A stretch of DNA of 64,000 nt from Clostridia bacterium (GTDB taxonomy: Bacteria > Bacillota > Clostridia > TANB77 > CAG-508). The position numbers and the translations under genes are program-made. Under the pieces are notes generated by a model, which saw only the letters and a program-made list of their open reading frames with translations, did no database searches and was not told the origin of the DNA. This document shows positions 2,324-40,728 of this stretch, piece after piece (the stretch's first letter is position 1; each line of letters begins with the position of its first letter). Location: contig JAGAKS010000016.1 of NCBI GenBank assembly GCA_017625465.1, forward strand, positions 147,034 to 211,033, given 5' to 3'.

Positions 2324-2390
2324 TTTCTTTCCTCCCCACTTCTAAAAAATCACAAGCAAAGTATATCATACCTATAAATTTTTATCAATA

Positions 2391-2446
2391 AAAAACAAAA
2401 AAAAGGAACGTCATCCTTAAAAACTTTGAGCGTTCCTTTTTTACAT
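2391..2446. terminator. Rho-independent terminator downstream of thrS. The hairpin AAGGAACG...CGTTCCTT is flanked by A/T runs on both sides.
   Basis: An inverted repeat at 2403-2410 and 2431-2438 has T runs on both strands. Confidence 0.6.
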
Positions 2447-2448
2447 AA

Positions 2449-4221
2449 TTATCTAGCGTAATTATTTACTTCTTCTTTAATTTTTGATAGAAATTCATCA
2501 AATTTCATTTGACCAACATCTCCATCTTTTCTTGTTCTAACACCTACTGCATCATTTTGAACTTCTTTTTCTCCAATAATTAACATATATGGTGTTTTTT
2601 GAAGTTGAGCTTCACGAATTTTGTATCCTATTTTTTCTTGTCTATCATCTAGTTCTACTCTTAAACCTTCTTTTCTAAGTTTTTCTGTTACTGCTTGTGC
2701 ATAATCTTTTTGATTATCTGTAATAGGTAAAACTTTTACTTGGACTGGTGCAAGCCATGTTGGGAAAGCACCTTTTGTCTCTTCAATTAAGAAAGCTAAA
2801 AATCTATCAAATGTACCTAAAATTGCTCTATGAATAACTACTGGTCTATGTTTTTCTCCATCTTCTCCAACATATTCTAGTTCAAATCTTTGTGGTAATA
2901 AGAAATCTAATTGACAAGTAGAAACTGTAACATCATGTCCTAAAGCTGTTTTTATTTGAACATCTAATTTAGGACCATAGAAAGCAGCTTCTCCTTCTGC
3001 TTCATAGAAATCCATTCCTGTTTCTGTTAAAATTTCTCTTAATTGTCTTTCTGCATTTTCCCACATTTCATCATCATCAAAGTATTTTTCTTTATTGTTT
3101 TTATCTCTTAAAGATAATCTAAATGAGTAATCTTTAAATCCAAAATCTTCATAAACTGAAAGAATTAAATCCACAACGTTTTTAAATTCTTCCTTAATTT
3201 GATCTGGTCTTACAAAAAGATGCGCATCATTTTGACACATTTCACGAACTCTTTCAAGTCCGCACACACTTCCACTATCTTCATATCTAAAATCATGTGC
3301 AAGTTCACCAATTCTTATTGGTAATTCTCTATATGAATGCATTTTATTTCTATAAATTAACATGTGGTGAGGACAATTCATAGGTCTTAAAACTATTTCC
3401 TCTTCTCCCATTTTCATAACTGGGAACATATCATCTTTATAGTGCATCCAGTGTCCACTTGTTTTATATAATGAAACATTTGCAAGTGATGGTGTATATA
3501 CATGATTGTAACCCATACTAATTTCTTTATCTTGAATATATCTTTCAAGTAATCTTCTAACTGTTGCTCCTTTTGGCAAGTACATTGGAAGTCCTGAACC
3601 AACTAATTCGTGTGTCATAAATAGTTCTAATTCTTTACCAACTTTTCTATGGTCTCTTTCTTTTGCTTCTGCAAGTTTAGCTAAATATTCATCAACTTCA
3701 CTAGCTTTTGGGAAAGATATACCATAAATTCTTTGAAGCATTTTGTTATGTTCATCACCTCTCCAATATGCACCTGATGAGCTCAATAATTTAACTGCTT
3801 TTACAGCGCCAGTACTTGGTAAATGTGGTCCTCTACAAAGGTCTGTAAAATCACCTTGTTTATAAAAAGATATTACTTCACCTTCTGGTAAATCTTTAAT
3901 TAATTCTACTTTGTATGGTTCTTCTCTTTCTTCCATAAATTTAATTGCTTCTTCTCTTGGAAGTTCAAATCTTTCTAAAGGGAAATCCTCTTTAATTATT
4001 TTTTTCATTTCTTCTTCGATAGCTTTTAAATCATCTTCTGAAAAAGGTTTTTCTACATCAAAATCATAATAGAAACCATTTTCTATAGCAGGTCCTATTG
4101 CTAATTTTGCATTTGGATATAATCTTTTAACAGCTTGTGCCATAATATGAGATGTTGTATGCCAATACATAGACTCCTCAACTTCTGCTGTTCTTCCTCC
4201 ACCTAATTTGATTTTAAACAT
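2449..4221 (-). CDS. thrS: Threonyl-tRNA synthetase. It is 590 aa and starts at the N2/editing domain with no N-terminal TGS domain.
   Basis: Class II aaRS motifs are present together with an HxxxH-type editing-domain region and a C-terminal anticodon-binding domain. A strong RBS AGGAGGAAACAG precedes the ATG and a T-box leader lies upstream. Confidence 0.9.
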
Positions 4222-4224
4222 ACT

Positions 4225-4500
4225 GTTTCCTCCTTAAAAATTAAATTTATATGCTATCTGTTTTTTAATACAAAAAAACCTATAAGCATATAGCTTATAG
4301 GGGTAAGATTTTTCTCACGGTTCCACCCTAATATTTAACTCTTAATAGATTTGTAACGTAATCTTACAACGCCAATTTTTCAATTGGAAACTCCAAGGTA
4401 GTATTTCAAATATGTTTTCTTAAATGTGCTTTCAGCCTACGACACATTCTCTCTATAAGTAACCTTTATTTTACTTGTCCTCTTCACAGTTTACATTTTT
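4225..4500 (-). promoter_or_regulatory. T-box riboswitch leader of thrS. It has the conserved T-box sequence and a terminator/antiterminator.
   Basis: The minus strand reads AATATTAGGGTGGAACCGTGAG (plus 4314..4335), matching the AATTAGGGTGGNACCGCG T-box consensus. A terminator hairpin CCCCTATAAGC...GCTTATAGG plus a U-run lies at 4266..4303. A promoter TTGACA-17-TATTAT lies at 4501..4529 (minus). Confidence 0.7.
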
Positions 4501-4641
4501 ATAATACTACTTTATTTAAAATGTGTCAAGAAAATCTGTAACATTTATGTGTTTTTTGTATTAAATTTAAGTAACATACCGTCCTTTATATCTTTGTTGT
4601 AGTATAATAATTATGTATATTTATATAATGTGAGGAAAATT

Positions 4642-6186
4642 ATGAAATTAAATTTAGATCAAAAAACAAAAAAGAATTTTAAACTATTACAATCTTGCTC
4701 TAAAGTAAAAATTATAGAGCTTACTGAAAAATTAATGCAATTAGAAAAAAAGCAAATTGGCCTTATTTCATCATCTGATGCTTTACATACTTTTCTTGAA
4801 GGTCTTTATCAAGATGAGCATAAATACGACAAGTCTGTAATTGTAAATCCTGATTATAGACAACTAACTACTGTTACTTTACCAAAATCTGATGAATTTT
4901 CACCAGATGAAGATCTTGCACAAGACTATAAAGAATATAGTTATCTTTCTAGAAATATTAGTGGATTAAGAAGAACTCTTGAGGAATATGAACACTTAAA
5001 TGAATTATTATCTACTCGTAAAGTTCCTGTACACGAACTAAATTCTTTTTTATCTTCTTCAAAACATACTAAAAGTTTTAAAAAATTTGCAGATTCTGCC
5101 AGAAAAGAACCTGCTATTGCTTTAAGTTTAAAATATAAAATGTTAGCTAATAGAATTGCTGAAAGAAATGGTATTGCCAATACTGTTTTTTATACTAATA
5201 CAGATTCAACATTTTCTATAAATGACCTTTCTTTATCTTTAAATAAAGATTTTAAAGGTAGAGCAATAAATACTGGTGCAAAAATGTTAGCCGGTCTTGC
5301 ACTTTCAGCTACGCTATATGGTGTAGGTTTTTCTCATGGAAAAAATGCTACACAAGTAACTCAAGGAACTACTGAACCACATACTATAGAAACTACAGTC
5401 GATGAAACATCTGATTATGGTGAGGGCGTTGAAAGTCCAAGTATATTTACAAATGGCGTACAAAACATTGATTCTTATGAAACTGCTTGTCAAGATTACT
5501 TTGAAAAAATATCAGACATATATGCTTATAATACTGGTGAAAGTATCGATTTGTCTAGATATGAGCAAGAAAATATTGGATGGAATAATTCTACTACTAT
5601 ATTTACAGTTAATAATAATGGTAAAACTTATAGAATTTCTGCACAAAGCCACGCTGGCTCTAATTTACAATATTTAAAACAAGCACTTGATGCTACTGGA
5701 CTAGAATATGAAGAAACAACTTCTGCTATTAGCTATATTGTTGATAAAAATGATTCTAGTCGTAGTATTGCTATAGCAGATAGCATAGGTAATCCAGTTC
5801 GTAGTGGAAATATTTTAAGCGGAAAAAACAACGCTTATAACCCACTTTATGTTGCAGGTGGTAGAGATATATTAGTTGCACAAGGTAGAGATGCAAGTAC
5901 ATTAACTGAAGCTGAATGTGTTGGAGCTTACATTACATCAGACCAATATAATATTCAAAATGATGAACTTTCTAGAGCTCTTGGTGAAGTTCAAAATCTT
6001 ACAAGATTCATCAAAAATTCTTTCTATTACAGCAGAAATGGAGAGTCTGATCCATACACAGTAGCTTTATATAGAAATAAATCTCGTAGCTTTGCAGAGG
6101 ACTTTGACGCAAGAATTAATGGACAAACTATAGAAACTCCATCTTCTGCAACAACACCAACTGAACAAGATAATAGCGAAAGATAG
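4642..6186 (+). CDS. Hypothetical single-pass membrane protein of 514 aa. It has a cytoplasmic coiled N-terminal half, one TM segment and an extracellular Ser/Thr/Asn-rich C-terminal half.
   Basis: The ATG at 4642 is preceded by GTGAGGAAAA. One hydrophobic segment is present (AKMLAGLALSATLYGVGF). It is a lone plus-strand gene among minus-strand operons. No family was recognised. Confidence 0.6.
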   Translation: MKLNLDQKTKKNFKLLQSCSKVKIIELTEKLMQLEKKQIGLISSSDALHTFLEGLYQDEHKYDKSVIVNPDYRQLTTVTLPKSDEFSPDEDLAQDYKEYSYLSRNISGLRRTLEEYEHLNELLSTRKVPVHELNSFLSSSKHTKSFKKFADSARKEPAIALSLKYKMLANRIAERNGIANTVFYTNTDSTFSINDLSLSLNKDFKGRAINTGAKMLAGLALSATLYGVGFSHGKNATQVTQGTTEPHTIETTVDETSDYGEGVESPSIFTNGVQNIDSYETACQDYFEKISDIYAYNTGESIDLSRYEQENIGWNNSTTIFTVNNNGKTYRISAQSHAGSNLQYLKQALDATGLEYEETTSAISYIVDKNDSSRSIAIADSIGNPVRSGNILSGKNNAYNPLYVAGGRDILVAQGRDASTLTEAECVGAYITSDQYNIQNDELSRALGEVQNLTRFIKNSFYYSRNGESDPYTVALYRNKSRSFAEDFDARINGQTIETPSSATTPTEQDNSER

Positions 6187-6191
6187 AAATT

Positions 6192-6228
6192 TTAAACATC
6201 AACTAATCTTATAGTTGATGTTTTTTTA
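6192..6228 (+). terminator. Rho-independent terminator of the 4642..6186 gene.
   Basis: Hairpin AAACATCAACTA...TAGTTGATGTTT followed by TTTTTT. Confidence 0.7.
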
Positions 6229-6230
6229 TA

Positions 6231-6262
6231 CAAAAAATCCCAGAATAATCTGGGATTCTTTT
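6231..6262 (-). terminator. Rho-independent terminator downstream of rfbB.
   Basis: Hairpin AATCCCAGA..TCTGGGATT with a T-run on the minus strand. Confidence 0.65.
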
Positions 6263-6265
6263 ATA

Positions 6266-7237
6266 TTATTTATCTAAATATTCTGGATGAGCTAAATACC
6301 AATCTATTGTTTTAACTATACCATCTTCAAATTTAGTTTTTGGAAGCCATCCTAATTCGTTATGAATTTTAGTTGGGTCAATTGCATATCTGTAATCATG
6401 ACCTTTTCTATCTTCAACAAAAGAAATTAAACTTTCTGGTTTATCTAATCTTTTTAATATTAATTTTACAATTTCAATATTTCTCTTTTCATTGTGTCCA
6501 CCAATATTATATCTTTCACCTTTTTTACCATTGTGTAAAACAAGGTCTATTGCTTCACAGTGATCTTCAACAAATAACCAATCTCTTATATTTAATCCTT
6601 CACCATAAACTGGTAATTTTTCATCTTTCAAAGCTGCTGAAATCATGTGTGGTATTAATTTTTCATGGTGTTGATATGGTCCATAGTTGTTTGAACAATT
6701 TGTTACAGAAACATTCATTTTAAATGTTTCACTATAAGCTAATGCTATTAAATCTGAACCAGCTTTTGAAGCTGAATATGGACTGTTTGGTTGAATTGGA
6801 GATGTCTCTGTGAAATATCCTTCTTCACCTAATGTACCATAGACTTCATCTGTAGAAACATGTACAAATTTGTTTTCGCTTCCTTCGCCCCAATATTGTT
6901 TTGCTGCTTCTAATAAAGTATGTGTTCCTATAACATTTGTATGTGTAAATACGAATGGATTTTTTATACTATTATCTACATGAGATTCTGCTGCAAAATG
7001 TACAACACTATCGATATTATATTTTTTGTATGTTTCCATTACAAAATCAAAATCACAAATGTCACCTTGAACAAAAGTTATTTTATCCTTGATTCCATCT
7101 AAATTATGTAAATTTCCAGCATAAGTTAATTTATCAAATACAATAATATTGTATTTTCCTTCATATTTTTTTACCATTAATTCTGCAAAATTTGCACCTA
7201 TAAAACCTGCAGCACCTGTTACTAATATATTTTTCAT
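6266..7237 (-). CDS. rfbB: dTDP-glucose 4,6-dehydratase.
   Basis: An SDR fold is indicated by the Rossmann motif GAAGFIG and a YxxxK motif. The start MKNILVTG overlaps the rfbC stop as TAATG, which indicates translational coupling. Confidence 0.9.
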   Translation of the reverse strand: MKNILVTGAAGFIGANFAELMVKKYEGKYNIIVFDKLTYAGNLHNLDGIKDKITFVQGDICDFDFVMETYKKYNIDSVVHFAAESHVDNSIKNPFVFTHTNVIGTHTLLEAAKQYWGEGSENKFVHVSTDEVYGTLGEEGYFTETSPIQPNSPYSASKAGSDLIALAYSETFKMNVSVTNCSNNYGPYQHHEKLIPHMISAALKDEKLPVYGEGLNIRDWLFVEDHCEAIDLVLHNGKKGERYNIGGHNEKRNIEIVKLILKRLDKPESLISFVEDRKGHDYRYAIDPTKIHNELGWLPKTKFEDGIVKTIDWYLAHPEYLDK

Positions 7238-7800
7238 TATTTCCAAATTTCTCCTTCCGTAAATTCTTTTAATGTTTGCCATTTACCATCTTTTTCAGAT
7301 GTAAGTATTTCACAATCAACTTCTGGCCATTCAATTCCAATTTCAGGATCATTATACATAATTCCTGATTCTGCACTATGATTATATACATCTGTGCATT
7401 TATATGTAAACTCTGCTTCGTCAGATAAAACTAAGAAGCCGTGAGCAAAATATGGTGGTATATAAAACATTTTCTTATTTTCTTCTGAAAGTTCAACACC
7501 AACCCATTTACCATAAGTTGAGCTATTTCTTCTTAAATCAACTGCAACATCAAAAACTCTTCCTTTTATAACTCTAACAAGTTTTCCTTGTGTATTTTCG
7601 ATTTGGAAATGCAATCCTCTTAAAACACCTTTTTTAGATTTTGATTGATTATCTTGAACAAATTCTTCTTTTATTCCAATTTCTTCAAAATCTGGTTTAC
7701 TATATGTTTCCATAAAGTACCCTCTGTTATCTCCAAATACAGTAGGTTCTATTACACAAACACCTTCAATATCAGTATCAATTCTTTTAAATTTTCCCAA
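7237..7800 (-). CDS. rfbC: dTDP-4-dehydrorhamnose 3,5-epimerase.
   Basis: Cupin-fold RmlC signature (RGLHFQ...). It is the right size and sits in operon context. Confidence 0.9.
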   Translation of the reverse strand: MGKFKRIDTDIEGVCVIEPTVFGDNRGYFMETYSKPDFEEIGIKEEFVQDNQSKSKKGVLRGLHFQIENTQGKLVRVIKGRVFDVAVDLRRNSSTYGKWVGVELSEENKKMFYIPPYFAHGFLVLSDEAEFTYKCTDVYNHSAESGIMYNDPEIGIEWPEVDCEILTSEKDGKWQTLKEFTEGEIWK

Positions 7801-7814
7801 TTTCTTTACCCCTT

Positions 7815-8726
7815 TTATTTAAATAATTCACTATTATAAATATCTTTGTATGTATCCCAATCTTGTTCAGCAACTTTTTTCAAATATTTTCCATAGTCAG
7901 TCTTTTTATATTTTTCAGCATATTCTAAAATTGTTTCTTTAGAAATCCATTCGTTTCTATAAGCAATTTCTTCTAAGCAAGCAATTTGAACACCTTGTCT
8001 TAATTCTATAGCTTTAACAAAATCTGATGCATCAGATAATCTATCTGGAGAACCTGTATCAAACCAAGCATATCCATTACCTAAAGGAATAACTTGTAAT
8101 TTTCCTTTTTCCATATAAATTCTGTTAACATCTGTAATTTCTAATTCACCTCTGTCAGAAGGTTTTATTTCTTTAGCAATTTTAACTACTTCATTATCGT
8201 AGAAATAAATTCCAGGAACTGCTAAATTTGATTTTGGAACTTCTGGTTTTTCTTCAATAGAAATAGCTTTTCCAGATTTATCAATTTCAACAACACCATA
8301 AGAAGTTGGATCTGCAACTTGATATCCAAAAATAATTCCACCTTCTTTTAATTTGCTTGCAGCTTTTAAAACTCTTTCAATTCTTGAACCATAAACCATG
8401 TTATCTCCAAGAATTAATGCTACATTATCATCTCCGATAAAATCAGCACCTAATATAAAAGCATCAGCTAGTCCAACTGGTTTTTCTTGAACTTTGTATT
8501 CAAATTTCATTCCAAATCTTGAACCATCTCCTAATAAACTTTGGAATGCTGGTAAGTGAACTGGTGTAGAGATAATTAATACCTCTCTAATTCCAGCCAT
8601 CATCAATGTTGATAATGGATAATAAATCATTGGTTTGTCATAAACTGGTAACATTTGCTTTGAAACAGCTAATGTTATTGGATATAATCTTGTGGCACTT
8701 CCACCTGCTAAAATAATACCTTTCAT
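7815..8726 (-). CDS. rfbA: Glucose-1-phosphate thymidylyltransferase.
   Basis: The N-terminus GIILAGGSATRLYPIT matches the nucleotidyltransferase signature. The likely start is the internal Met MKGIILAGG. Confidence 0.9.
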   Translation of the reverse strand: MKGIILAGGSATRLYPITLAVSKQMLPVYDKPMIYYPLSTLMMAGIREVLIISTPVHLPAFQSLLGDGSRFGMKFEYKVQEKPVGLADAFILGADFIGDDNVALILGDNMVYGSRIERVLKAASKLKEGGIIFGYQVADPTSYGVVEIDKSGKAISIEEKPEVPKSNLAVPGIYFYDNEVVKIAKEIKPSDRGELEITDVNRIYMEKGKLQVIPLGNGYAWFDTGSPDRLSDASDFVKAIELRQGVQIACLEEIAYRNEWISKETILEYAEKYKKTDYGKYLKKVAEQDWDTYKDIYNSELFK

Positions 8727-10780: not shown

Positions 10781-10868
10781 AATTTTTCTCCTTATTTTTT
10801 TACCAAATTATTTATATCATAAAAGCAAAAAAAATGCCATAAATAATTAAATATTTATGACATTTTTA

Positions 10869-11576
10869 TTAATCTTCTAATATCTTCCAACTTCCTATTT
10901 TTTCTGGATAATCTTCAAACAATAAAACTTCTTTTGTTGTAGGATGTTTAAACGAAAGTGAAAAAGCCCATAAAGCTAATTGCTTTCCTCTGCCTCTTGT
11001 ACCATATTTTTGATCACCATATAAACTATGATTTCTACTAGAAAATTGAACTCTAATTTGATGGTGTCTACCGGTATGAAGATTTACTTTTATAACAGAT
11101 AAATTTATTTCTTCATTGTACTTAATAACTTCGTAATCTAGTATTGCTTCTTTTGCATTCTTTTCATTTGGCTTTGCAATTCTACTTGTATTAGTTTTTT
11201 CATTTTTATATAAGTAATCTTTAAAAGTACCTTGTTTCTCTTCCATTTGGCCATCTACAATGCATAAATATTGTTTGTGCATTTCTTTATTTCTAACTTG
11301 TTCACTAAGCCTAGATGCTGCTTTTGAAGTCTTTGCAAATACCATTACTCCACCAGTTGGTCTATCTAATCTATGGACCAAGCCTAAATAAACTTCACCA
11401 GGTTTGTTATATTTTTCTTTTAGATATGCTTTTATGATTGAAAGCATATCTATATCTCCTGTCTTATCTCCCTGTGATGGAATGTTCACTGGTTTTTCTA
11501 CTACTATTATATGATTATCTTCATATATTGCTTTTAAATTTTCCATATTAGCTCTCCCATCTAGCATAAATTCCAC
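10869..11576 (-). CDS. RluA-family pseudouridine synthase.
   Basis: The catalytic motif HRLDRPTGG is present and the size is right. Confidence 0.85.
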   Translation of the reverse strand: MEFMLDGRANMENLKAIYEDNHIIVVEKPVNIPSQGDKTGDIDMLSIIKAYLKEKYNKPGEVYLGLVHRLDRPTGGVMVFAKTSKAASRLSEQVRNKEMHKQYLCIVDGQMEEKQGTFKDYLYKNEKTNTSRIAKPNEKNAKEAILDYEVIKYNEEINLSVIKVNLHTGRHHQIRVQFSSRNHSLYGDQKYGTRGRGKQLALWAFSLSFKHPTTKEVLLFEDYPEKIGSWKILED

Positions 11577-25791: not shown

Positions 25792-25920
25792 TATATTGTA
25801 CATATTTATTATTCATTACCCATTAAGGGGCTTAACCTAGCTTGTGCATTTTAGCTTTTTTATAACTTGAATATGTACAGTACAATATAGGTTGAGTAAC
25901 GTTTGAAAGGAGTCTTATTT

Positions 25921-26508
25921 ATGACAACACGTATTTGGTTAGACACAGTGGTACTTGCAGCGCTTGATGACGCAAAAGAGGTTCTTGAACGGCTGATTGC
26001 TGAAGGTAAGCAGTTGGTTATCGCCAACACCGCTCTGGACGTCAGAGTCTTTCAGGAGAACATCGATTGGTTTGAGGATCAGCTGGCTGAAGGCAAGATC
26101 AACATCGAAATCTGGAACACTCCGGACGAGATGGTTAGCAAAGAATTCTTCTGGAGTTCTTGCAACATGACATCTGAGCCTTCAACGGATCTGTATGAAG
26201 CAGTCGAAGACTTCCCGAATAAGGAAGCAATCCTGGACATCGCAGATCTGATTTCCGTTTATGGCATGCCGAAAGGTGATTGGGTTATGGGTCCTTGGAC
26301 ACCGCCTGCACCTTTAAGCCCTGAAATTGCCGAAGAGCTTGGAATCTCCACAGCTAGCACCAGAACTGAAGTTCTCGATGCAGCCATGAGCCAGAACAGA
26401 TTTGACCTCTTCAACATCTACAATACCGGCTATTGCACCGGTTTGGCTACGCAGCACAACTGCGACGCCCTACTCAATGTAGATGGCTCCATTACAGAGA
26501 TCGAGTAA
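25921..26508 (+). CDS. Compositionally foreign gene encoding a 195-aa acidic cytoplasmic protein of unknown function (MTTRIWLDTVVLAALDDAKEVLERLIAEGKQLVIANTALD...).
   Basis: Two 60-nt hand counts give 27/60 and 31/60 G+C, against 11/60 in the adjacent native sequence. Codons such as CTG, CCG and GGC are typical of higher-GC genomes. A consensus RBS AAAGGAG lies 8 nt before the ATG. The ORF-track start at 25903 is a TTG that lies within the RBS. Confidence 0.75.
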   Translation: MTTRIWLDTVVLAALDDAKEVLERLIAEGKQLVIANTALDVRVFQENIDWFEDQLAEGKINIEIWNTPDEMVSKEFFWSSCNMTSEPSTDLYEAVEDFPNKEAILDIADLISVYGMPKGDWVMGPWTPPAPLSPEIAEELGISTASTRTEVLDAAMSQNRFDLFNIYNTGYCTGLATQHNCDALLNVDGSITEIE

Positions 26509-33250: not shown

Positions 33251-33946
33251 TTAATCTTGCAAATCTTCTATTTCTTGCACTTTTGTTATATTGTTAATTG
33301 AAAGTAAATCTGATAATAATCTGTTTTTGTTTATTTCATCTCTGTGCTTTCCAGTAATTTTTATGTAATTTATTGAATTTTCTTCTTCAATCATTATTTC
33401 TTTAACTTCAATTTTATTTCTATCTAAAAATATTTGTACCTCATTCATAACTTCTTTTGGAGTAGGAGTTTCTACATGTAAATTTATTGTATGGAAATGT
33501 CCTACTTTTTCTGAAATCGAACTTGAATGTTTAAGTACTACATAAACAACAGCCGTAGCTATAATTCCACTAAGATATAGTCCAGCGCCTACGCACAATC
33601 CTATACATGTTATAGCAAGCAAACTTGCTGCAGTTGTAAGACCTTTAACATTAAAACCATCTTTTAAAACAGTTCCTGCTCCTAAGAAACCAATACCTGA
33701 TAATAATTGTGCTGGAATTCTACTAAAGTCTGTACTGCCAGATATTTCCGCTATTTTATGTGCACACACTACTGTAAGTACAGCACTCATACCTACTAAT
33801 ACGTGTGTTCTAAAACCTGCTGGTTTACTTAATGCAGCTCTTTCCAATCCTATAAAGCCAGCCAATATGTAAATTAAAATTAATTTAATTAGAACGTCTA
33901 TTGGTTCTAATTGTATAAAGTTTTGTAATAAATAAATGAAATTCAA
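33251..33946 (-). CDS. MgtC/SapB family membrane protein.
   Basis: An MgtC-like N-terminal TM core (GLERAALSKPAGFRTHVLVG) is followed by a soluble C-terminal domain. Confidence 0.7.
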   Translation of the reverse strand: MNFIYLLQNFIQLEPIDVLIKLILIYILAGFIGLERAALSKPAGFRTHVLVGMSAVLTVVCAHKIAEISGSTDFSRIPAQLLSGIGFLGAGTVLKDGFNVKGLTTAASLLAITCIGLCVGAGLYLSGIIATAVVYVVLKHSSSISEKVGHFHTINLHVETPTPKEVMNEVQIFLDRNKIEVKEIMIEEENSINYIKITGKHRDEINKNRLLSDLLSINNITKVQEIEDLQD

Positions 33947-34181: not shown

Positions 34182-35042
34182 CTAAATAGGATTTACATGT
34201 ATAACGGTTAAGTATACTTCATCAATCTCCTTGTCAATTTCTTTTTCTAATTTATCAGCAATTTCATGGCTTTCAAAAGTAGTCATATTTCCATCTACAA
34301 AAATAGAAAATGAAATTTGGTATTGATATCCAACTGGAGTTGCGTTAAAGTGAGTTACTTTTTGTATTTCTTTATGCTTTTTGATAATTTCATATACTTC
34401 TTGTTTAGTTCTTTCATCAAAACATTTATCCATTAACACATCGTAACTTTGTATAAATATTTTAGCTGCTGAGATTAAAATCCATGTAGATATTCCAATA
34501 CCTACAACGCCATCAATCCAATATATTCCAGCTAATGAAAGTAAGCAAGAGATTAAGTTACATGAGGTAACAAAACAATCATTTCTATGATCCTCTGAGT
34601 TTGCTTTTATTAACAGATTATTTAATTTTTTAGCCATTCTATTTGTATAAATAAATAGTAAAAACTTAACGCAAATAGTGACAATACATACTACCACAAG
34701 CCACATTGAAAATTCATATTTTGTATGATAAATCAAACTTAAAATTGCATCTTTTATTATAACAAATGACATTAAAATCATAGCAATACTTATAAGCATA
34801 GAAAATATATATTCTGCTTTTCCATGACCTAAATTATGATCTTCATCATAAGGTTTGCTGGCTATTTTATTACCTATAAAAGTTAAAAGTGAAGAAAATA
34901 TATCTCCCGCGCTATTAAAGCTATCTGCTATCATTGCTTGGCTTCCACTCATAAAACCTACAATTGCTTTAATTACAAGCAAAAATATATTTCCTATTAT
35001 TCCTAAAATACTAGCTATTTTTACACTTTTAAATCTATCCAT
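34182..35042 (-). CDS. Cation diffusion facilitator (CDF) family metal efflux transporter.
   Basis: A TM domain with His/Asp metal-site residues is followed by a C-terminal cytoplasmic domain. The length is about 286 aa. Confidence 0.7.
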   Translation of the reverse strand: MDRFKSVKIASILGIIGNIFLLVIKAIVGFMSGSQAMIADSFNSAGDIFSSLLTFIGNKIASKPYDEDHNLGHGKAEYIFSMLISIAMILMSFVIIKDAILSLIYHTKYEFSMWLVVVCIVTICVKFLLFIYTNRMAKKLNNLLIKANSEDHRNDCFVTSCNLISCLLSLAGIYWIDGVVGIGISTWILISAAKIFIQSYDVLMDKCFDERTKQEVYEIIKKHKEIQKVTHFNATPVGYQYQISFSIFVDGNMTTFESHEIADKLEKEIDKEIDEVYLTVIHVNPI

Positions 35043-35193
35043 ATAAATACCTCGAATATTTGATAACTATCTTATTATATTAACACAAAAATACATATGT
35101 ATCAATAGCAAAAATCATTTTTATTTATTAAAATAAAAACAACAGAGCTACTAACGAGAATCGTTAGTAGCCTTTGCATAAATGAGAATTACA

Positions 35194-35823
35194 TTAAATT
35201 AAAGAAACGTTTTCGAGAATTATTGCTGGAATTTCAGGTAAGCAATGATCCCTTGCAAAAAGTACACAATTGTAGCCATCAAGCAACCGCATATTTTTGT
35301 CCAAAATAACGGGTCGTGGCAATCTGTGATACTTGTTATGGAACTCTAAAATACGATGATATCGTTTACCGCGAAGTTCTGTGCTGGCAAGTTGATAATC
35401 AATAGACCATACATCAACCATTGTAAACCATTTCTTTGGCAGAACAAATCCTCTTTCATGAAAAATATAGTTGCGATTTTCTAGCACTTCTTTGCGGTAC
35501 TGCTTTTGCTCTTTAGGCCTCAACTTTAAAAAGTGAAAATATTCATCACGAGTTAAATTTCCCTTTTCTGAGTTACAAGGTGAACAAGATGGAAAAAGAT
35601 TATTAACAATACTAATGCCACCAGCGTCCCTTGGGTAAGCATGGTCAATAGTTCTTGTTTCCTTCCTAAGCTTTTTATCGCAATAATAGCAACGGTGGTT
35701 CTTAGTTGCGTATGTGAGCTCGTACATTAAATCCTCAAAACGTACATTCTCATAAATAAGCAATTCTCCATTTATAACCTCTGCATATCGCATCCGAAAT
35801 TTGTTGGGTAATTCCATAATCAT
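35194..35823 (-). CDS. HNH endonuclease domain protein.
   Basis: The HNH motif reads CYYCDKKL...HAYPRDAGG...N...CSPCNSEKG. The RBS GGAGGG supports a start at MIMELPNKF. A 60-nt hand count gives about 37% G+C, higher than the neighbouring sequence. Confidence 0.7.
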   Translation of the reverse strand: MIMELPNKFRMRYAEVINGELLIYENVRFEDLMYELTYATKNHRCYYCDKKLRKETRTIDHAYPRDAGGISIVNNLFPSCSPCNSEKGNLTRDEYFHFLKLRPKEQKQYRKEVLENRNYIFHERGFVLPKKWFTMVDVWSIDYQLASTELRGKRYHRILEFHNKYHRLPRPVILDKNMRLLDGYNCVLFARDHCLPEIPAIILENVSLI

Positions 35824-35930
35824 AGTACATCCCTCCAATAAAAAAATGCAAAGCATCGTTTATAAGTGTCTTTAATAGTATATCATAAAATGTTTGATTT
35901 TTCAAGCAAAATATTGATTTCTATGAAAAA

Positions 35931-36692
35931 CTACCTTTTTAATCCATTCAAATATTGCTTTTGTTCTGGAGTTATTCTATAACTTTCTCTAGCTTTTTGA
36001 ATAGTTTTATTATGAACCCATTTATCTAGTTTATTTTCCTCAATGTATATAATAGTTTTCTCCCATTGTTTTGCTAATGCCGTTGCAAAAAACCACGCTA
36101 TCATCATTTGAACATAGTATTCTTCTGAATGAATATTAGCAGGAATTTCTAAATATTCTGGTTTAAAATCTTCGTCAAGGAAATGACTCATTAACATTTC
36201 TATACCAAATCTACAAGTATATATTTCTTTAGATGCAGACCACAATTTTATTTTTTCAATTAATTTTTATTTGTTTTTATTAAATATTTTGGGAGACATT
36301 ATGTCACACACTGCCCAATTATCTACATAAGGTAAAAACTTATCTACTTCTTTTATACAAATATCAAAATCTTTAATTTCTGAAATTAATAACCCATGCA
36401 ACATATTTTCATCATAATATTCATGTGGTAGTACTTTTAAAAATAGTTTTGCTTCTTCATCTTTTATATATTGTTTTGCTAATTTTCTTACTTCTGGCAC
36501 TCTAACACCAATAAATTTTTCTTTAGAAACAGTAGGCGTTAATTTACTTTGAAATTCAGCATATTCTTTATCTTGTAATTCAAATAATTTATTTAATATT
36601 TCCATAACTTTAATTCCTTTTATTTTGTAAATTTTCTGCTTTTTTAGTCTGCTTTTCTTTTTCACTATACCATTATTAAATAATTGGTTCAA
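35931..36692 (-). pseudogene. DNA alkylation repair enzyme (AlkC/AlkD-like HEAT-repeat glycosylase family) split into two frames, 36267..36692 and 35931..36245.
   Basis: Consecutive N-terminal and C-terminal fragments lie in different frames and are separated by a stop. This may be a frameshift or a sequencing error. Confidence 0.45.
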
Positions 36693-36726
36693 TAAAATAA
36701 CAAAATTTTCTTCAAAATTAGTTGTT

Positions 36727-37713
36727 TTAACAAATAGTTAAATATTTTTGTGGTATGAATACTTTATCTAGTGTTTTTTGTCTTACTGCATTTGTTATTA
36801 TTTCTATAATACTACTTGGATTTTTCTTGATATAGCTTTTCAATTCCTTATTATCTATTATCAATTCATTGCATATTTCTTCATATACTTGATTTATTAT
36901 ATTCACAACTTTGCTCTTATCTTTATTTTCAAGCATTAAATATATTTCATTCAATTCAGATATAGAAATGCATAAATCTTGTATATTTCTTTTCACTAAT
37001 TTACAAGCAATTATTTCTAGTAGCACTACCTCAAAAATATTAATAATTAAATCTTTATAATCTTGTGAATATCCATATAGTAAATACTTTATTTTTTCTT
37101 CAGAAAATTTTTTACAAAATAGATTTTCTAAATATATTGAGCTCAAATATTCTTTTATAAACTCGACTCCTTCAAGTTTTCCTATTAAATTATTATATAA
37201 CGGATAATCGGCTGTTATTTTCATATCTTGTGCTTTAAAATCTGGGTCATATATTTTTAGGAACCCTTGAATTCCGCCAATTATTGTATCATTATAAGTA
37301 TCATTTTCGATGTTCAATTTGTTTTCTTTTACTCTAATATACATTATTCTAATTATATTTAGCATTCTATCTATCTTTTTTCTTCCTTCTCGATATGCTA
37401 TTTTTACACCTTGTCCTTTAATATTCTTTACAGCCTCATCTGGATTTTTAAATGATTTTAAATATATGCTTATTGTATAAATATTAGAATTCGATATATC
37501 TTCCAGAATTTCTTTTCTAATAGAACTACTATCTAATCCGTTATATTTATATACAATTTCATCTAGCAACTGTAAAATCTGTATTTGTAAATTCAAAATA
37601 TCAGTCTCTGTAATCATTTTTTCTTCATAAGCTGCTTCTATTAAACTATTAAAATAGTTTTTTTCATCTAAGTTTTTTCTTTTTATGGTACTGATAATAT
37701 CAATTTCATTCAT
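36727..37713 (-). CDS. Hypothetical protein of 328 aa.
   Basis: It is an ORF only and is tightly linked to the next gene. Confidence 0.5.
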   Translation of the reverse strand: MNEIDIISTIKRKNLDEKNYFNSLIEAAYEEKMITETDILNLQIQILQLLDEIVYKYNGLDSSSIRKEILEDISNSNIYTISIYLKSFKNPDEAVKNIKGQGVKIAYREGRKKIDRMLNIIRIMYIRVKENKLNIENDTYNDTIIGGIQGFLKIYDPDFKAQDMKITADYPLYNNLIGKLEGVEFIKEYLSSIYLENLFCKKFSEEKIKYLLYGYSQDYKDLIINIFEVVLLEIIACKLVKRNIQDLCISISELNEIYLMLENKDKSKVVNIINQVYEEICNELIIDNKELKSYIKKNPSSIIEIITNAVRQKTLDKVFIPQKYLTIC

Positions 37714-37729
37714 TATCTGTTATTATAAT

Positions 37730-38494
37730 TTATTTTGTTCTCTCATTTTCATCTTTTTGTATATTTTCTAATTCTTTTTCTTTTATTTGAGTTTTAAAAC
37801 ATTGTGCAAAATTAACAAAATATTCTTCCACCTCTTCAGCTGTAGTATGTTCATCGACTGGCATTCGCAAAAATACGGCCTCTGTAGAACTATCTGTCCA
37901 AGGATATAATAGAACAATATGTCTTTTTTCAAATTCAATTAATTTTTCTTCAACTTCTATATTTCGAGGAATTTCTTCTTCACTTAAAATTGTTCTTAAA
38001 AAATCATAATCATATTTTCCTATTCTTAAAGAAAATTCTATATTACCATCCATTTCTGTAGGATGTACAAACCAAATTGCTTTTTCGCCTACTTTTTCTC
38101 CATCTTTTCCAATTCGTCCTTCAAGCTCAAATAATAAATCTTTATTCTCATCAGATAACGTATTAAAATTAAGCATTATCCATGCATAACCATTACCTGC
38201 TTCTAAAAATAAATGATTCTCAAATAATTTATCAAAACTTCCATATACATCTTCTTTTTCTATTCTTTTTTCGCCATCTCTTAGAACATTATTTTTATTA
38301 GCACTGCTCATTACTGTTTCTATTCCTTTTTCTTTAAAAACTTTGCAGGCTTTTCTTAATGGTAATTCTATTATTTTATCTATTATATCAACTTTACTAT
38401 CTTGTTGTAATAGATTAACTGCTGGTTCATTGATTGGTTCAATTTCTTTTATTAGCATTAAACATCTCCTTTTTAATGTTTTCGTTCTAATCAA
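37730..38494 (-). CDS. Hypothetical protein of 254 aa.
   Basis: It is an ORF only. Confidence 0.5.
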   Translation of the reverse strand: MIRTKTLKRRCLMLIKEIEPINEPAVNLLQQDSKVDIIDKIIELPLRKACKVFKEKGIETVMSSANKNNVLRDGEKRIEKEDVYGSFDKLFENHLFLEAGNGYAWIMLNFNTLSDENKDLLFELEGRIGKDGEKVGEKAIWFVHPTEMDGNIEFSLRIGKYDYDFLRTILSEEEIPRNIEVEEKLIEFEKRHIVLLYPWTDSSTEAVFLRMPVDEHTTAEEVEEYFVNFAQCFKTQIKEKELENIQKDENERTK

Positions 38495-38616
38495 GTAAAC
38501 TTTTTATATTTTCATAACTCTCTACTTTAATATTGATATTTTTTGATAATTCCTCTGCATAAAGTATAGAATTTATATAAATAGTAATGAAAATGTTAAC
38601 TTGTTCAAATATAATT

Positions 38617-38952
38617 TTAATCCATTAAAAAAGTTGGATTCATATATTTATAGCCCGATGTTATTTGATTTTGTGGAATAAAATCTTCTTTTCCTATAAT
38701 TACTTTTAATTCTTCCATATTTACTGGTTTATATATACAACTTAAATAATCCATTAACCTAAACAATCTAGTTCTATTTGAAAATCTAAAAAAAATATTT
38801 CTGTTAAAATCAATATCATAAATATAATCTTTGTTTTCAATCTCATCATCATAATCAAAAATTATAAAATTTTCATTTGAATTAGAAATATCTTTTATTG
38901 TATATGGTGTAAAACACCACATATTGTAATCCTCCATTGCAGAGTATGACAT
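38617..38952 (-). CDS. Hypothetical protein of 111 aa.
   Basis: It is an ORF only. Confidence 0.35.
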   Translation of the reverse strand: MSYSAMEDYNMWCFTPYTIKDISNSNENFIIFDYDDEIENKDYIYDIDFNRNIFFRFSNRTRLFRLMDYLSCIYKPVNMEELKVIIGKEDFIPQNQITSGYKYMNPTFLMD

Positions 38953-38989
38953 TCTATCTTCACAAGTTCTTAATACTCTTTCAAACTCT

Positions 38990-39235
38990 TCATCTTCCTT
39001 TTAATTCATTAATCGAGTTTTCTTTTTTAAATACAATTCTTTGTGGTTTTTCTTTGTATTGTTCGTTATTAAAACTTTGATACTTACCTTCATATTCTTT
39101 TTCATCTAATTCCACTGCTTGTCTTTTGCTTTCTATGATTTTCATTTCATTATTCTTTTGATATAATATGGCTATAATAACGCAAACAAATACTATCGCA
39201 ATGACTATGATAAAATATTTAATATATTTTTTCAT
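38990..39235 (-). CDS. Small membrane protein of 81 aa.
   Basis: An N-terminal TM helix is followed by a charged C-terminus. Confidence 0.35.
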   Translation of the reverse strand: MKKYIKYFIIVIAIVFVCVIIAILYQKNNEMKIIESKRQAVELDEKEYEGKYQSFNNEQYKEKPQRIVFKKENSINELKGR

Positions 39236-39595
39236 ATATAATCTCCTCTTTAAATTATTATCGAACTCATTATATCATAATCATTATATATTTGTGAATG
39301 CTTATCACAGCAAAGAACATTGTAATCTATTGACTTTATTTAAAATTCATAGTAAAATAAAAATAAGAAATGGAGAAACCACAAGATGTGGTTTGCCGAT
39401 TATATGTAAAAAACACATTGAACCGCCAAGTTACAGATGTGTTTTTTTATTGTCTATTTACTCAAAATTATAACCAGTATAATTAAGGCAAATACTATAA
39501 TAGTTTCAACAACTAAGCCAAACAAAAGTAAGTAAATTATTGCTAACATACCATTATGCAAGTCTTATGTAGACCGAATTAGCAAACCTTACAGG

Positions 39596-39628
39596 CATAA
39601 GAAAAAGCGAGTTTTACAACTCGCTTTT
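39596..39628 (-). terminator. Terminator downstream of tRNA-Leu.
   Basis: Hairpin AAGCGAGTT-GTAA-AACTCGCTT plus a T-run on the minus strand. Confidence 0.7.
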
Positions 39629-39630
39629 AA

Positions 39631-39713
39631 TGGTGCGGTAGAGAGGACTTGAACCCCCACGGTCTCCCACTAGATCCTAAGTCTAGCGCGTCTGCCAGTT
39701 CCGCCACTACCGC
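39631..39713 (-). tRNA. tRNA-Leu (anticodon UAG), type II with a long variable arm and an encoded CCA.
   Basis: A hand-folded cloverleaf gives GCGGTAG...anticodon loop CTTAGGA...variable arm...GGTTCAAGTCC...CTACCGCACCA. Confidence 0.85.
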
Positions 39714-39777
39714 GTGTTAGTATTCCTAACAACATTAATATTTTAGCACAACAATATTTCAAAGTCAAGACATATAT

Positions 39778-40728
39778 TTAAAATATCTCGTAAAAATTTT
39801 TAAATACATAACCTTGTTCTCTTAAATATCTTATAACTTCTGGCAAAGCTTCTACTGTTACTTGTTTATCACTAGCATCATGCATTAAAACAACTATTGT
39901 ATCGTCACCTTCCATAGTTAGTTTTAATTCATTTAATTGGTCTTCTACTGTATTTTTTCCTTCTGCATCACCAGTCATGCAATTCCAATTAGTATGTGAA
40001 ACTCCATAAGAATTTAATACACTTTTTGACTCAGCCTTTACATCTGAATATTTTCCACCTGATGAACCGCCCGGATATCTAAACAAATACATTCTATAAT
40101 CTTCTATTCCAAGAGCCGCTCTTACAGCATTTTCACAATCAACATATTCTCCAAAAATTGTATCTACGGATCTATAAATTTTGGAATATGAATGTGAATA
40201 TCCATGATTTGCTATGTAATGTCCTTCTTCATACGCTCTTTTTACTAAGTTTGGATACATATTTACTCTGGCTCCAACAACAAAGAAAGTTGCAGGCACA
40301 TTTTCATTTTTTAATATATCTAATATTTGTGGTGTAATTGTTGCGGATGGACCATCATCAAAAGTTAAATATGCTACTTTTTCTGTTGAATAATATAAAT
40401 TTTTTATTTCTTCTTGTGCATTTTCATTATATTCTGGTATAAATTTTGATTTAATTCTTTCTGCACTATGTTTTGCAATTTGAACGTGTGCTGTTTTTAA
40501 GGTCTTTTCTTCACCAGCAACAGCTTGAACATCAGTTGGTTCTGCTGCAACATATTCAGTATCTTGAACAGGTTTAGAAATTTTATTATAACTTAATACA
40601 AAACTTCCTACTAAAATTATAAAACAAGATACAACAGAAGTAATAAAAATAGCTACTTTTTTCACATTTAATCTAGGCTCATCATATATATTTGTTAGTC
40701 GTGTTTCATTATGATTATCATATAACAT
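39778..40728 (-). CDS. Polysaccharide (peptidoglycan GlcNAc) deacetylase, NodB-homology domain, membrane-anchored.
   Basis: An N-terminal TM helix and NodB motifs (YLTFDDGPS, HGYSHS) are present. Confidence 0.85.
   Translation of the reverse strand: MLYDNHNETRLTNIYDEPRLNVKKVAIFITSVVSCFIILVGSFVLSYNKISKPVQDTEYVAAEPTDVQAVAGEEKTLKTAHVQIAKHSAERIKSKFIPEYNENAQEEIKNLYYSTEKVAYLTFDDGPSATITPQILDILKNENVPATFFVVGARVNMYPNLVKRAYEEGHYIANHGYSHSYSKIYRSVDTIFGEYVDCENAVRAALGIEDYRMYLFRYPGGSSGGKYSDVKAESKSVLNSYGVSHTNWNCMTGDAEGKNTVEDQLNELKLTMEGDDTIVVLMHDASDKQVTVEALPEVIRYLREQGYVFKNFYEIF

Follow-up and report, generated by a model that had tools for sequence, protein, structure and literature searches.

A variable accessory segment beside a tRNA-Leu gene of a Clostridia bacterium, with one uncharacterised family of predicted nucleases

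We analysed a stretch of 64,000 nucleotides from a Clostridia bacterium, referred to below as the window, and concentrated on the variable interval of 4.6 kb that separates its tRNA-Leu(UAG) gene from a CDF metal-efflux gene. The features of this interval and its borders are listed in Table 1. A previous sequence-only reading had suggested that the interval is a horizontally acquired, possibly defence-related islet. The adjacency to the tRNA (ARAGORN, Rfam), the HNH domain of the endonuclease (Pfam) and all of the listed open reading frames were confirmed, though several of the frames have to be interpreted differently. The ORFs at 38990-39235 (81 aa) and 38617-38952 (111 aa), taken for separate genes, are the halves of one gene for a 209-aa membrane-anchored protein without any Pfam or PADLOC match. 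The 254-aa ORF at 37730-38494 exists as well, but its start is most likely at 38458, judging by the homologues. The resulting 242-aa protein (p254) has no Pfam domain, and its gene carries an independent frameshift in L022, a contig of the sister lineage. The ORF next to it, previously uncharacterised, could be assigned to DUF6179. The decayed AlkD-like gene does match PF08713, but it is interrupted by an in-frame stop codon and not by a frameshift.

Table 1. Features of the variable interval and its borders in window coordinates.
Feature	Position	Strand	Details
tRNA-Leu(UAG)	39631-39713	-	ARAGORN and Rfam; right-hand border of the interval
Hairpin followed by T-run, terminator-like	39600-39626	-	directly 3' of the tRNA; read from the sequence
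45-nt stretch	39478-39522	-	100% identical to L019 8115-8159 (blastn, alignment)
Pseudogene, 209-aa protein with N-terminal membrane anchor	38617-39235	-	alignment to L001
242-aa protein (p254), intact, large conserved family	37730-38458	-	start according to homologues
Deletion junction, sole remaining copy of AGATAATGAAT	37708-37718	-	comparison with L001
DUF6179 gene, intact, partner missing	36727-37713	-	Pfam PF19677, E 9e-81
AlkD-like pseudogene (PF08713, DNA_alkylation)	35931-36605	-	in-frame TAA at 36267-36269
Sigma-A-type promoter of the HNH gene	35877-35905	-	TTGAAA-17-TATACT with TG extension; pattern scan
HNH nuclease gene, 209 aa	35194-35823	-	GC 36%, GC3 0.32
Intrinsic terminator after the HNH gene	35146-35172	-	12-bp stem followed by T-run; pattern scan
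CDF (cation-efflux) gene	34182-35042	-	Pfam Cation_efflux and ZT_dimer; left-hand border

A pattern scan of positions 34900-39900 returned a single terminator-like site, the one after the HNH gene. It made no call for the hairpin behind the tRNA, which has a comparable counterpart at the matching place in L003. The 45-nt stretch contains a weak promoter-like match (TTGGCT-16-TATAGT, pattern scan) and had no match in viral contigs. Its copy in L019 lies immediately beyond a mobilisable element, and the sequences on either side of it do not align between the window and L019.

To describe the interval in relatives we used blastn. For L003, L019 and L002 both flanks were collinear with the window at about 80-87% nucleotide identity. 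The homology to L003 and L019 stops at about 39626-39631, which is the 3' end of the tRNA-Leu gene, and for all three relatives it picks up again at 35042-35053, the CDF start codon. The gene content between the two breakpoints is entirely different from that of the window. L003 carries SPL, a pentapeptide-repeat protein, HAD and Tag. In L002, whose contig begins just upstream, we observed a pentapeptide-repeat protein, HAD and Tag, and in L019 a serine recombinase, TnpV, MobC, a relaxase, TMEM164 and NT5C, the serine-recombinase/relaxase element abutting the tRNA. As the flanks are collinear and the cargo of the relatives is unrelated to that of the window, we regard the interval as a replacement hot spot, and the alignments support a non-core, variable, tRNA-adjacent position. 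In chromosomal hot spots and genomic islets, conserved core genes enclose a variable segment, in many cases next to a tRNA gene. The interval resembles them in its collinear core flanks, the sharp break at the tRNA 3' end, the different cargo in each of three lineages and the mobile element found at the site in one relative. It differs in that integrase, att repeat and foreign oligonucleotide signature are missing and the cargo consists of clade-native families under purifying selection.

The gene order of the block is kept in the same-species contig L001 (99.3-99.96% identity) and in the sister-lineage contigs L021-L024 (91-96% nucleotide identity across the block), with DUF1697 replacing the membrane-anchored 209-aa gene near the tRNA in L022. 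In the sister lineage the block is conserved and under purifying selection, with dN/dS values of 0.13 for HNH, 0.06 for AlkD, 0.18 for DUF6179 and 0.11 for DUF6323. The dS of AlkD and HNH (0.42-0.50) exceeds that of the flanks (0.11-0.22), which could mean that recombination brought this sub-segment in from a relative that had diverged further. The closest outgroups show a CDF identity of only 79-83%; the lineage that changed may be that of the window or that of the relatives, and the block as a whole may have come by transfer into the ancestor that the window shares with its sister lineages.

A classical genomic island, in which the whole 4.6-kb block integrated site-specifically at the tRNA-Leu 3' end and subsequently lost integrase and att sites, is in our judgement very unlikely. 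It would fit the location beside the tRNA, the exact break of homology, the recombinase-bearing element at the orthologous tRNA of L019 and the tRNA-proximal genes that vary even in the sister contig L022. However, no copy of the tRNA-Leu 3' end was found anywhere in the 64-kb window, in agreement with the earlier inspection by eye, nor did we detect meaningful direct or inverted repeats or an integrase or recombinase among the window's Pfam matches. Genes of Tn4451-type mobilisable transposons (large serine recombinase, TnpV, Mob), a set of which directly follows the tRNA in L019 and a similar set of which lies beside a p254 homologue in L036, are all absent from the window. Furthermore, the gene families of the block are widespread and chromosomal in related Clostridia, where they occupy unrelated loci, and the block therefore did not travel as a unit. 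Individual modules are likely to be somewhat mobile, since both the HNH gene and the DUF6323-DUF6179 pair are found in many different neighbourhoods across lineages.

The atypical composition of the HNH gene might also be counted in favour of an island. We measured a G+C content of 36.2% (about 37% by the earlier hand count) and a GC3 of 0.32 against about 0.13; over the window's 48 long ORFs GC3 averages 0.144, with most values at 0.10-0.17. The compositional shift is real for this gene, but the other five of the six block genes are ordinary (GC3 0.10-0.20), and the di- and tetranucleotide signatures of the block deviate from the window mean by less than 1 SD. The G+C excess runs along the whole HNH gene and is accompanied by host-rare codons: AGA accounts for 18% of Arg codons (background 85%) and AAG for 50% of Lys codons (background 11%). 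In five further lineages the HNH gene shows a GC3 of 0.22-0.38 compared to 0.09-0.15 for its neighbours, so that the shift recurs in 6/6 directly compared lineages, and it was also seen in 20/22 metagenome loci. We conclude that the excess is a family trait produced by gene-wide rare codons and not the mark of a GC-richer donor. Being family-wide, it says nothing on transfer into this genome.

The HNH protein is the one unusual gene product of the interval and represents an uncharacterised family of two-domain predicted nucleases. Its N-terminus holds an HNH domain with two CxxC pairs, D60-H61, N75 and N84. The C-terminus adopts a degenerate ParB/Srx fold that was detected solely by structure comparison and gave no match to a Pfam ParB model at E<=0.01. 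At the position of the ParB motif it reads DGYN, without the arginine of DGQQR or GxxR. We found 52 full-length homologues and about 116 clusters at E<=1e-30, nearly all of 208-230 aa. In 17 loci the gene is equipped with a promoter, a leader and a Shine-Dalgarno sequence of its own; the promoter layout TTGnnn-N17-(T)ATGATAnnnT recurs upstream of the homologues in 16 loci other than the window. The gene occurs in at least nine different neighbourhoods. Its core position beside yunB/sipL and rpsI-rplM is kept in at least five lineages at 49-57% identity, and in L063 the gene separates spoIIIAA from spoIIIAB within the spoIIIA operon. Phages and plasmids gave no full-length match, and we read the family as chromosomal and autonomous.

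These observations also bear on a selfish origin, i.e. a free-standing homing-type endonuclease cassette that inserted between genes and still shows the foreign codon usage of its origin. A promoter and terminator of its own, the foreign-like GC3 in every host, the several neighbourhoods and the position inside the spoIIIA operon would be expected of such a cassette. The dN/dS of 0.13 points instead to purifying selection at the level of the host, every locus examined holds one copy, and full-length copies are absent from introns and inteins as well as from phages and plasmids. The stable position spans lineages whose synonymous sites are necessarily saturated. Over such a span the codon usage of a donor ought to have disappeared, and the bias must therefore be actively maintained. 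We consider a homing cassette most improbable.

Enzymes of the GmrSD type comprise several hundred residues, in contrast to the about 210 aa of the HNH protein. Like the Type IV restriction enzymes GmrSD, BrxU and SspE, which combine a DUF262 ParB/Srx NTPase with a DUF1524 HNH domain (PMC4619093), it joins a ParB/Srx-type fold and a His-Me/HNH nuclease domain in one polypeptide, with the order reversed so that HNH comes first. A 2025 survey of the ParB fold lists ParB-CTPase-fold/HNH fusions as novel, uncharacterised bacterial architectures (PMC12704722). The present protein agrees with them in being bacterial and chromosomal and in pairing a ParB-type fold with a PF01844 HNH domain, and differs in that its ParB-like domain falls below Pfam detection. 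A Cas9/IscB identity was rejected: the scores of 34-40 bits fall far short of the family cut-offs (175-375), and RuvC, bridge helix and guide-RNA locus are lacking.

The likeness to GmrSD raises the question of a defence islet, with the HNH protein as a compact single-gene nuclease system, DUF6323-DUF6179 as a two-gene defence or toxin-antitoxin-like module and the lesions described below as a cost of carriage. Besides the two shared folds, the promoter-to-terminator cassette in varied neighbourhoods, the atypical codon usage, the faster evolution of the HNH gene (dN 0.055 compared to 0.004-0.009 in the flanks) and the hot-spot location are compatible with this. So is the DUF6323 gene, which overlaps and precedes DUF6179 in nine loci with upstream sequence, that is in all others examined (among them L001, L021, L022, L024 with its 5' end cut at the contig edge, and L041-L043), while the neighbourhood changes. 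On the other hand, PADLOC identified no system in the block. For the HNH protein it gave only weak, generic HNH-domain matches to PtuB and PDC-M01B (E>=4e-8) and none of the GmrSD type. A PtuA-like ATPase does not occur in the vicinity, the other block proteins had no PADLOC match, and DUF262 and DUF1524 had no Pfam match. The DGYN motif lacks the arginine, and the stable core position is unusual for a defence gene. DUF6179 has 524 homologues, and identities of 76-95% among the best 120 of these lie far above typical defence-gene conservation. Moreover, the loss of DUF6323 has left it unaltered, and this speaks against a toxin that was released from its antitoxin. We thus consider the suggested role in defence unlikely.

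The comparison of the window assembly with one metagenome contig, L001, revealed three lesions. An 11-bp deletion near 39002 splits the membrane-anchored 209-aa gene, which is one continuous ORF in L001 (218-847). Between two 11-bp copies of AGATAATGAAT (L001 1746-1756 and 2399-2409) 643 bp are missing, and with them the DUF6323 gene (L001 1941-2411). The sequence-only reading had missed this deletion. Finally, a GAA to TAA change separates the two AlkD pieces, which share a frame (36692-36245 = 447 = 3 x 149), and cuts the protein after codon 112 of 224. Another G to T change lies 10 bp away (substitutions at 36279 and 36269). Both are absent from L001, where the gene encodes an intact 224-aa protein. 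Over 5288 bp no other substitution separates the window from L001, and together with the two deletions these two make up all differences over about 7 kb. We therefore interpret the AlkD pseudogene as a strain-specific nonsense mutation and not as old decay, and it no longer serves as a sign of acquisition. The intact allele matches the HEAT-like-repeat alkylpurine DNA glycosylases AlkD/AlkC nearly end to end (Pfam E 2.6e-20, compared to 9.6e-12 for the N-terminal piece of the truncated window copy). Its W-x3-D motif (DNWAVCD) lies where Bacillus cereus AlkD has its catalytic Trp and Asp; phmmer found no PDB chain for this distant protein.

Taken together, positions 35054-39625 are probably a lineage-specific accessory segment in a chromosomal replacement hot spot that is neither mobile nor recently foreign today: a mostly ordinary variable segment with one uncharacterised nuclease family. 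Its intact form is that of L001, with four independent modules: the membrane-anchored and 242-aa proteins, the translationally coupled DUF6323-DUF6179 pair, the AlkD-type glycosylase and the self-contained HNH gene. All belong to families that reside on the chromosomes of related spore-forming gut Clostridia of low GC, and across the lineage purifying selection preserves them. In the window strain three modules have just been knocked out, by the frameshifting deletion, by a microhomology-mediated deletion and by the new stop codon, and the block is therefore dispensable under the conditions of this strain, or its loss was favoured. The rare HNH codons may be kept because they hold down the translation of a nuclease that could be toxic, or have another family-intrinsic cause. 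The protein itself would be a Zn-stabilised beta-beta-alpha-metal nuclease joined by a long helix tether to a minimal ParB/Srx domain. As this domain has no phosphate-binding arginines, its part is probably to recognise DNA or a partner, or to dimerise, and not to act as a canonical NTP switch.

Two further observations concern the contigs of the same species. The sample that yielded L001 also yielded L097, in which 6 of 1949 bp differ on the opposite side of the tRNA, and the comparison strain is therefore non-clonal or the sample contains several strains. All five same-species short-read contigs (5/5) end within the tRNA-Leu gene, at 39678 or 39684.

The interval between the tRNA-Leu gene and the CDF (cation-efflux) gene is a true, sharply bounded hot spot of replacement. 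We scanned a genome collection with the CDF protein as query. No same-species genome was found in it; relatives were found at 79-83% protein identity. Three relatives (L003, L002 and L019) are collinear with the window on both flanks, at 80-87% nucleotide identity. The conserved flank consists of an ATPase, a polysaccharide deacetylase and tRNA-Leu on one side and of CDF, MgtC (not in L003), a T-box leader, IleRS and RNase R on the other. Homology ends at ~39626 and restarts at 35042-35053, that is, exactly at the 3' end of the tRNA and at the start codon of CDF. In all three relatives the interval is occupied by other genes: L003 carries a spore photoproduct lyase, a pentapeptide-repeat protein, a HAD hydrolase and the 3-methyladenine glycosylase Tag; L002, whose contig begins just upstream, carries a pentapeptide-repeat protein, a HAD hydrolase and Tag; and L019 carries a large serine recombinase, TnpV, MobC/NikA, a relaxase and an HTH protein, followed by TMEM164 and NT5C. 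The L019 element (1128-8114) is a Tn4451-like mobilisable element and lies directly after the orthologous tRNA-Leu. As different cargo sits between the same flanks, the interval is a hot spot of replacement, which makes it a well-bounded chromosomal example in uncultured gut Clostridia with three alternative cargoes.

Features of the block between tRNA-Leu and CDF, with the source of each family assignment
Feature	Position	Strand	Evidence
tRNA-Leu(UAG)	39631-39713	minus	
209-aa gene	38617-39235	minus	
242-aa protein	37730-38458	minus	
DUF6179	36727-37713	minus	Pfam, E 9e-81
PF08713 DNA-alkylation-repair protein (AlkD), N-terminal half	36267-36605	minus	Pfam
HNH domain protein	35194-35823	minus	Pfam
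CDF	34182-35042	minus	

The flanks themselves also differ in places. MgtC (33251-33946 in the window) is kept in L002 and L019 and is missing in L003, where the IleRS T-box leader comes straight after CDF (10861-11050). A Wzz/tyrosine-kinase gene lies between the deacetylase gene and tRNA-Leu in L003 and L019 and is not there in the window. These differences indicate indels on both sides of the tRNA. A 45-nt stretch (39478-39522) is shared at 100% identity with L019 8115-8159; elsewhere the two genomes are ~82% identical, and the sequence on either side of the stretch cannot be aligned. In the window the stretch is located 109 nt downstream of tRNA-Leu, and in L019 it directly follows the mobilisable element. 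It was not found in viral contigs and might belong to an attachment site or represent a conserved promoter. A small toxin, encoded by a 31-aa hydrophobic ORF over it (~39458-39550), was considered and rejected: L019 keeps the 45 nt and not the frame. We also observed that every same-species short-read contig breaks within tRNA-Leu, five independent ones from five samples ending at 39678-39684. The intact same-species metagenome contig L001 begins at 39452. The assembly break is perhaps caused by a repeat (other copies of tRNA-Leu or the 45-nt element) or by strain heterogeneity.

A variable segment next to a tRNA could also be what is left of an eroded classical island, and the sequence-only reading had proposed a horizontally acquired islet. 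The variability next to the tRNA is real; a recent horizontal origin is opposed by the missing recombinase, the native signature and the synteny in the sister lineage, and the eroded-island explanation conflicts with at least two of the tested features. Among the ORFs of at least 81 aa in 35100-39630 we detected no recombinase with Pfam, NCBIfam or PHROGs. The mismatch pattern and the repeat searches agree with the earlier statement that no repeat of the tRNA end flanks the block: a 24-mer (3 mismatches) and a 15-mer (2 mismatches) of the 3' end match the tRNA itself alone, and the general repeat search returned chance-level AT-rich pairs and nothing meaningful. The window has a G+C content of ~28%, and nearly all genes of the 30-50 kb stretch are on the minus strand. 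The mean GC3 over its 48 long ORFs is 0.144 (majority 0.10-0.17). With 36.2% G+C and a GC3 of 0.32 the HNH gene is indeed raised, as had been noticed by eye, and it is the only part of the block that departs from the host: the other block genes show GC3 values of 0.10-0.20, and in the GC and k-mer scan proposed as a check, 35-39.6 kb deviates from the window mean by no more than 1 SD in both its dinucleotide and its tetranucleotide signature.

The window's most extreme outlier in composition, by a wide margin, lies elsewhere. It is a 201-aa acidic ORF (25903-26508, plus strand) with 47.7% G+C and a GC3 of 0.53, flanked by the genes of a TrmA-like methyltransferase and RNase R, and all its neighbours are on the other strand. 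It has no match in Pfam, PADLOC or Rfam, and the ~0.9-kb gap holding it does not align with L003, L019 or L002.

Alignment to related genomes, which had been suggested as a further check, gave a divided answer: L003, L002 and L019 carry other cargo, whereas the block is conserved in L001 and in the sister lineage. Four sister-lineage contigs (L021-L024, 91-96% nucleotide identity) share the gene order 242-aa protein, DUF6323, DUF6179, AlkD, HNH, CDF, MgtC, IleRS. Across the sister-lineage split dN/dS is 0.06-0.18 for the block genes, compared to 0.02-0.04 for the flanks; in the lineage these genes are functional, conserved and subject to purifying selection. Together these results speak against the block having entered the window's lineage recently. 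The least stable part of the block is its tRNA-proximal end; in L022 a DUF1697 gene takes the place of the 209-aa gene and the gene of the 242-aa protein is frameshifted. Compared to L021, AlkD and HNH show dS values of 0.42-0.50, as against 0.11-0.22 for IleRS, MgtC, CDF and DUF6179, and the AlkD-HNH spacer differs by a 300-bp indel bearing a 49-aa ORF. This suggests a sub-segment with a different history, e.g. recombination, and the divergence would fit an exchange of alleles within the clade. As a whole the region is ordinary, with a variable segment next to the tRNA.

The 7.7-kb contig L001 was retrieved by exact-protein look-up of DUF6179. It is 99.3-99.96% identical to the window, and over ~7 kb we counted four differing events in total. 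An 11-bp deletion near 39002 divides the 209-aa gene, whose protein has an N-terminal membrane anchor; all ORFs listed earlier downstream of tRNA-Leu(UAG) are present, and two that were taken as separate (38990..39235 and 38617..38952, 81 and 111 aa) are the halves of this one gene. A further 643 bp, flanked by two copies of AGATAATGAAT, have been deleted (junction 37708-37718), and with them the gene of a 156-aa DUF6323 protein that overlaps the start of DUF6179, leaving the window with DUF6179 and without its partner. The third event, a G to T substitution at 36269, converts a GAA codon of AlkD to TAA. AlkD thereby ends in frame at codon 113 of 224; what had been reported as a frameshift is a nonsense codon. 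The fourth event, G to T at 36279, lies 10 bp away and replaces Lys with Asn. Three of the four events are gene-destroying, and the number of silent changes in the shared 7 kb is zero. The intact L001 allele of AlkD matches PF08713 at E 2.6e-20; the window copy has no full-length match in an intact frame and, with TAA at codon 113, is therefore a pseudogene.

The window strain has thus undergone three recent inactivations, and three losses of function in one strain are worth a second look. The strain is probably losing a dispensable accessory block, and the region would then capture accessory-gene loss under way. The two strains are not clones, because a contig from the L001 sample on the other side of the tRNA differs at 6 SNPs in 1.9 kb. 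Both base substitutions between the window and L001 within 5.3 kb are G to T and 10 bp apart inside AlkD; the pair (36269 and 36279) looks like one clustered mutational event.

The HNH gene belongs to a two-domain nuclease family with a family-wide bias towards rare codons. All homologues are ~210 aa long and can be aligned over their full length, at 44-89% identity. Searching 1.84 billion representative proteins with a profile returned 116 clusters at E<=1e-30, almost all with 208-230 aa; the clusters are drawn at 50% identity. In the AF2 model (pLDDT 95) the N-terminal domain is HNH and the C-terminal one ParB/Srx, and no solved chain has both. The N-terminal domain is a His-Me finger with a beta-beta-alpha-metal core, a catalytic His, Asn residues and two CxxC zinc ligand pairs; both CxxC pairs, D60-H61, N75 and N84 are conserved in the family. 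Given these catalytic residues, the nuclease is probably active. The C-terminal half, for which there is no Pfam model, has the ParB/Srx fold and lacks its phosphate-binding arginine motif (GxxR, DGxHR or DGQQR). The ParB motif at this position is GERR, and that of DUF262 is DGQQR. The family has LLDGYN there, an equivalence judged by the order of strands and helices and by known ParB motifs; in this sequence D, G and N never vary, both L and the Y are at least 90% conserved, and Arg and His are absent. Such a degenerate domain would be expected to serve recognition or dimerisation rather than NTP switching, and the role of an arginine-less ParB/Srx domain in a nuclease makes the family a tractable target that is worth a second look.

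In its combination of folds the protein resembles the GmrSD-type Type IV systems (PMC4619093). However, these have DUF262 at the N-terminus and DUF1524 at the C-terminus, an order that is reversed here in a protein about one third the size, and we obtained no DUF262 or DUF1524 match in Pfam and no match to the PADLOC GmrSD model. The fold combination also recalls the ParB-fold/HNH fusions given as novel in PMC12704722. We found no literature on the HNH-ParB/Srx family itself, and nothing specific on HNH genes with sporulation neighbours or on rare-codon nucleases. A relationship to IscB/Cas9 was discarded, as the NCBIfam matches were far under the cut-offs and covered the HNH domain only, and Rfam returned no guide-like RNA.

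The sequence-only reading had taken the raised G+C as a sign of transfer. Exact-protein look-up gave five more lineages, in which the HNH homologue has a GC3 of 0.22-0.38 and its neighbours 0.09-0.15, and the metagenome scan found the excess in 20/22 loci. The bias is a shift towards host-rare codons: AGA accounts for 18% of the Arg codons compared to 85% in the background, CGN and AGG together for 82% in the window lineage, and AAG for 50% of the Lys codons compared to 11%. The excess is diffuse over the gene (variance 0.019, binomial expectation 0.013) and antisense ORFs are absent, which speaks against rare codons placed at particular sites and against an RNA element within the gene. As the lineages are merely ~50% identical in protein, synonymous sites must be saturated. 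A donor composition could not outlast this saturation, so the bias has to be maintained, and the high G+C is not evidence of transfer into the window genome. The anomaly tracks the gene family in most of the lineages compared and becomes visible only if homologues are compared inside their own genomes; for genome scans it follows that one tRNA-adjacent gene with raised G+C need not be a recent transfer. Why a gene keeps rare codons across deep divergence is a question this family lets one ask; the rare codons might limit the dosage of the nuclease.

Upstream of HNH, 17 loci share an extended -10 promoter (TTGnnn-N17-(T)ATGATAnnnT), a ~45-nt leader and the Shine-Dalgarno sequence AAGGAGG, and the window copy is followed by a clean terminator; by these predicted signals the gene appears to be an autonomous unit. 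The neighbourhoods vary, and sporulation genes recur in them: HNH stands between sipL-yunB and rpsI-rplM in at least five lineages, after DUF421 and DUF4363, before fba and smpB, or, with its own promoter, inside the spoIIIA operon between spoIIIAA and spoIIIAB (L063 4992-5648). A sporulation sigma-factor promoter was rejected, since the upstream regions have sigma-A-type extended -10 promoters. This predicted type argues for vegetative expression, so we treat the sporulation link as a lead only. In a human-gut lineage with HNH before fba and smpB, GC3 is raised in the genes directly upstream as well (0.24-0.43; L068 887-4770, L087 1810-4825). One of these genes encodes a beta-CASP metallo-beta-lactamase nuclease and another a protein of ~480-506 aa, which has no Pfam match in L068; L085 has the same arrangement without those upstream genes.

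An autonomous nuclease gene in changing neighbourhoods might be a selfish homing cassette. That account is in conflict with at least two tested features. No full-length protein occurs in viral contigs (IMG/VR), INPHARED phages or PLSDB plasmids (tblastn for the latter two). A phage or plasmid origin was rejected, as these collections yield only partial HNH-domain matches. We consider it unlikely that all of the following holds: that HNH-ParB/Srx is a new single-polypeptide nuclease class of spore-forming gut Clostridia, acting either as a mini reversed GmrSD analogue or as a nickase linked to genome maintenance or sporulation; that selected rare codons curb its dosage despite a strong promoter and Shine-Dalgarno sequence; and that the triple loss reflects selection and not chance.

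A defence islet, the function that had been thought possible, would account for a nuclease among uncharacterised genes. It too conflicts with at least two tested features. PADLOC-DB 2.0, applied to all block proteins including the intact L001 alleles, gave generic HNH-domain matches to PtuB and PDC-M01B alone; a PtuA-like or M01A partner is absent, and no known defence system is formed. DUF6323 has a below-noise match to the PADLOC AbiEi model (E 0.009). The earlier observation is largely real and mis-described in three details; of its interpretation, the variable segment beside a tRNA is right, and neither a recent horizontal origin nor a defence function is supported.

Pfam assigned no family to the other block proteins, and PADLOC and PHROGs give merely generic HNH matches. 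The gene families of the block are native to related lineages. DUF6179 has 524 homologues (best 120 of 524 at 76-95% identity), and an overlapping DUF6323 precedes it in 9/9 other loci with upstream sequence, in surroundings wholly different from lineage to lineage. The 242-aa protein has 483 homologues, with 50-98% identity among the 120 listed. A profile search found no PDB relatives of the 242-aa family or DUF6179, and no paper on DUF6179 or DUF6323 was found. The pair, like the 242-aa family, is common, conserved and wholly uncharacterised, and DUF6323-DUF6179, always paired, is worth a second look. A homologue of the 242-aa protein adjoins cotJB/cotJC in two other lineages. At L036 an element with a serine recombinase and Mob_Pre, similar to that of L019, lies between cotJB and the homologue; L038 is without the element.
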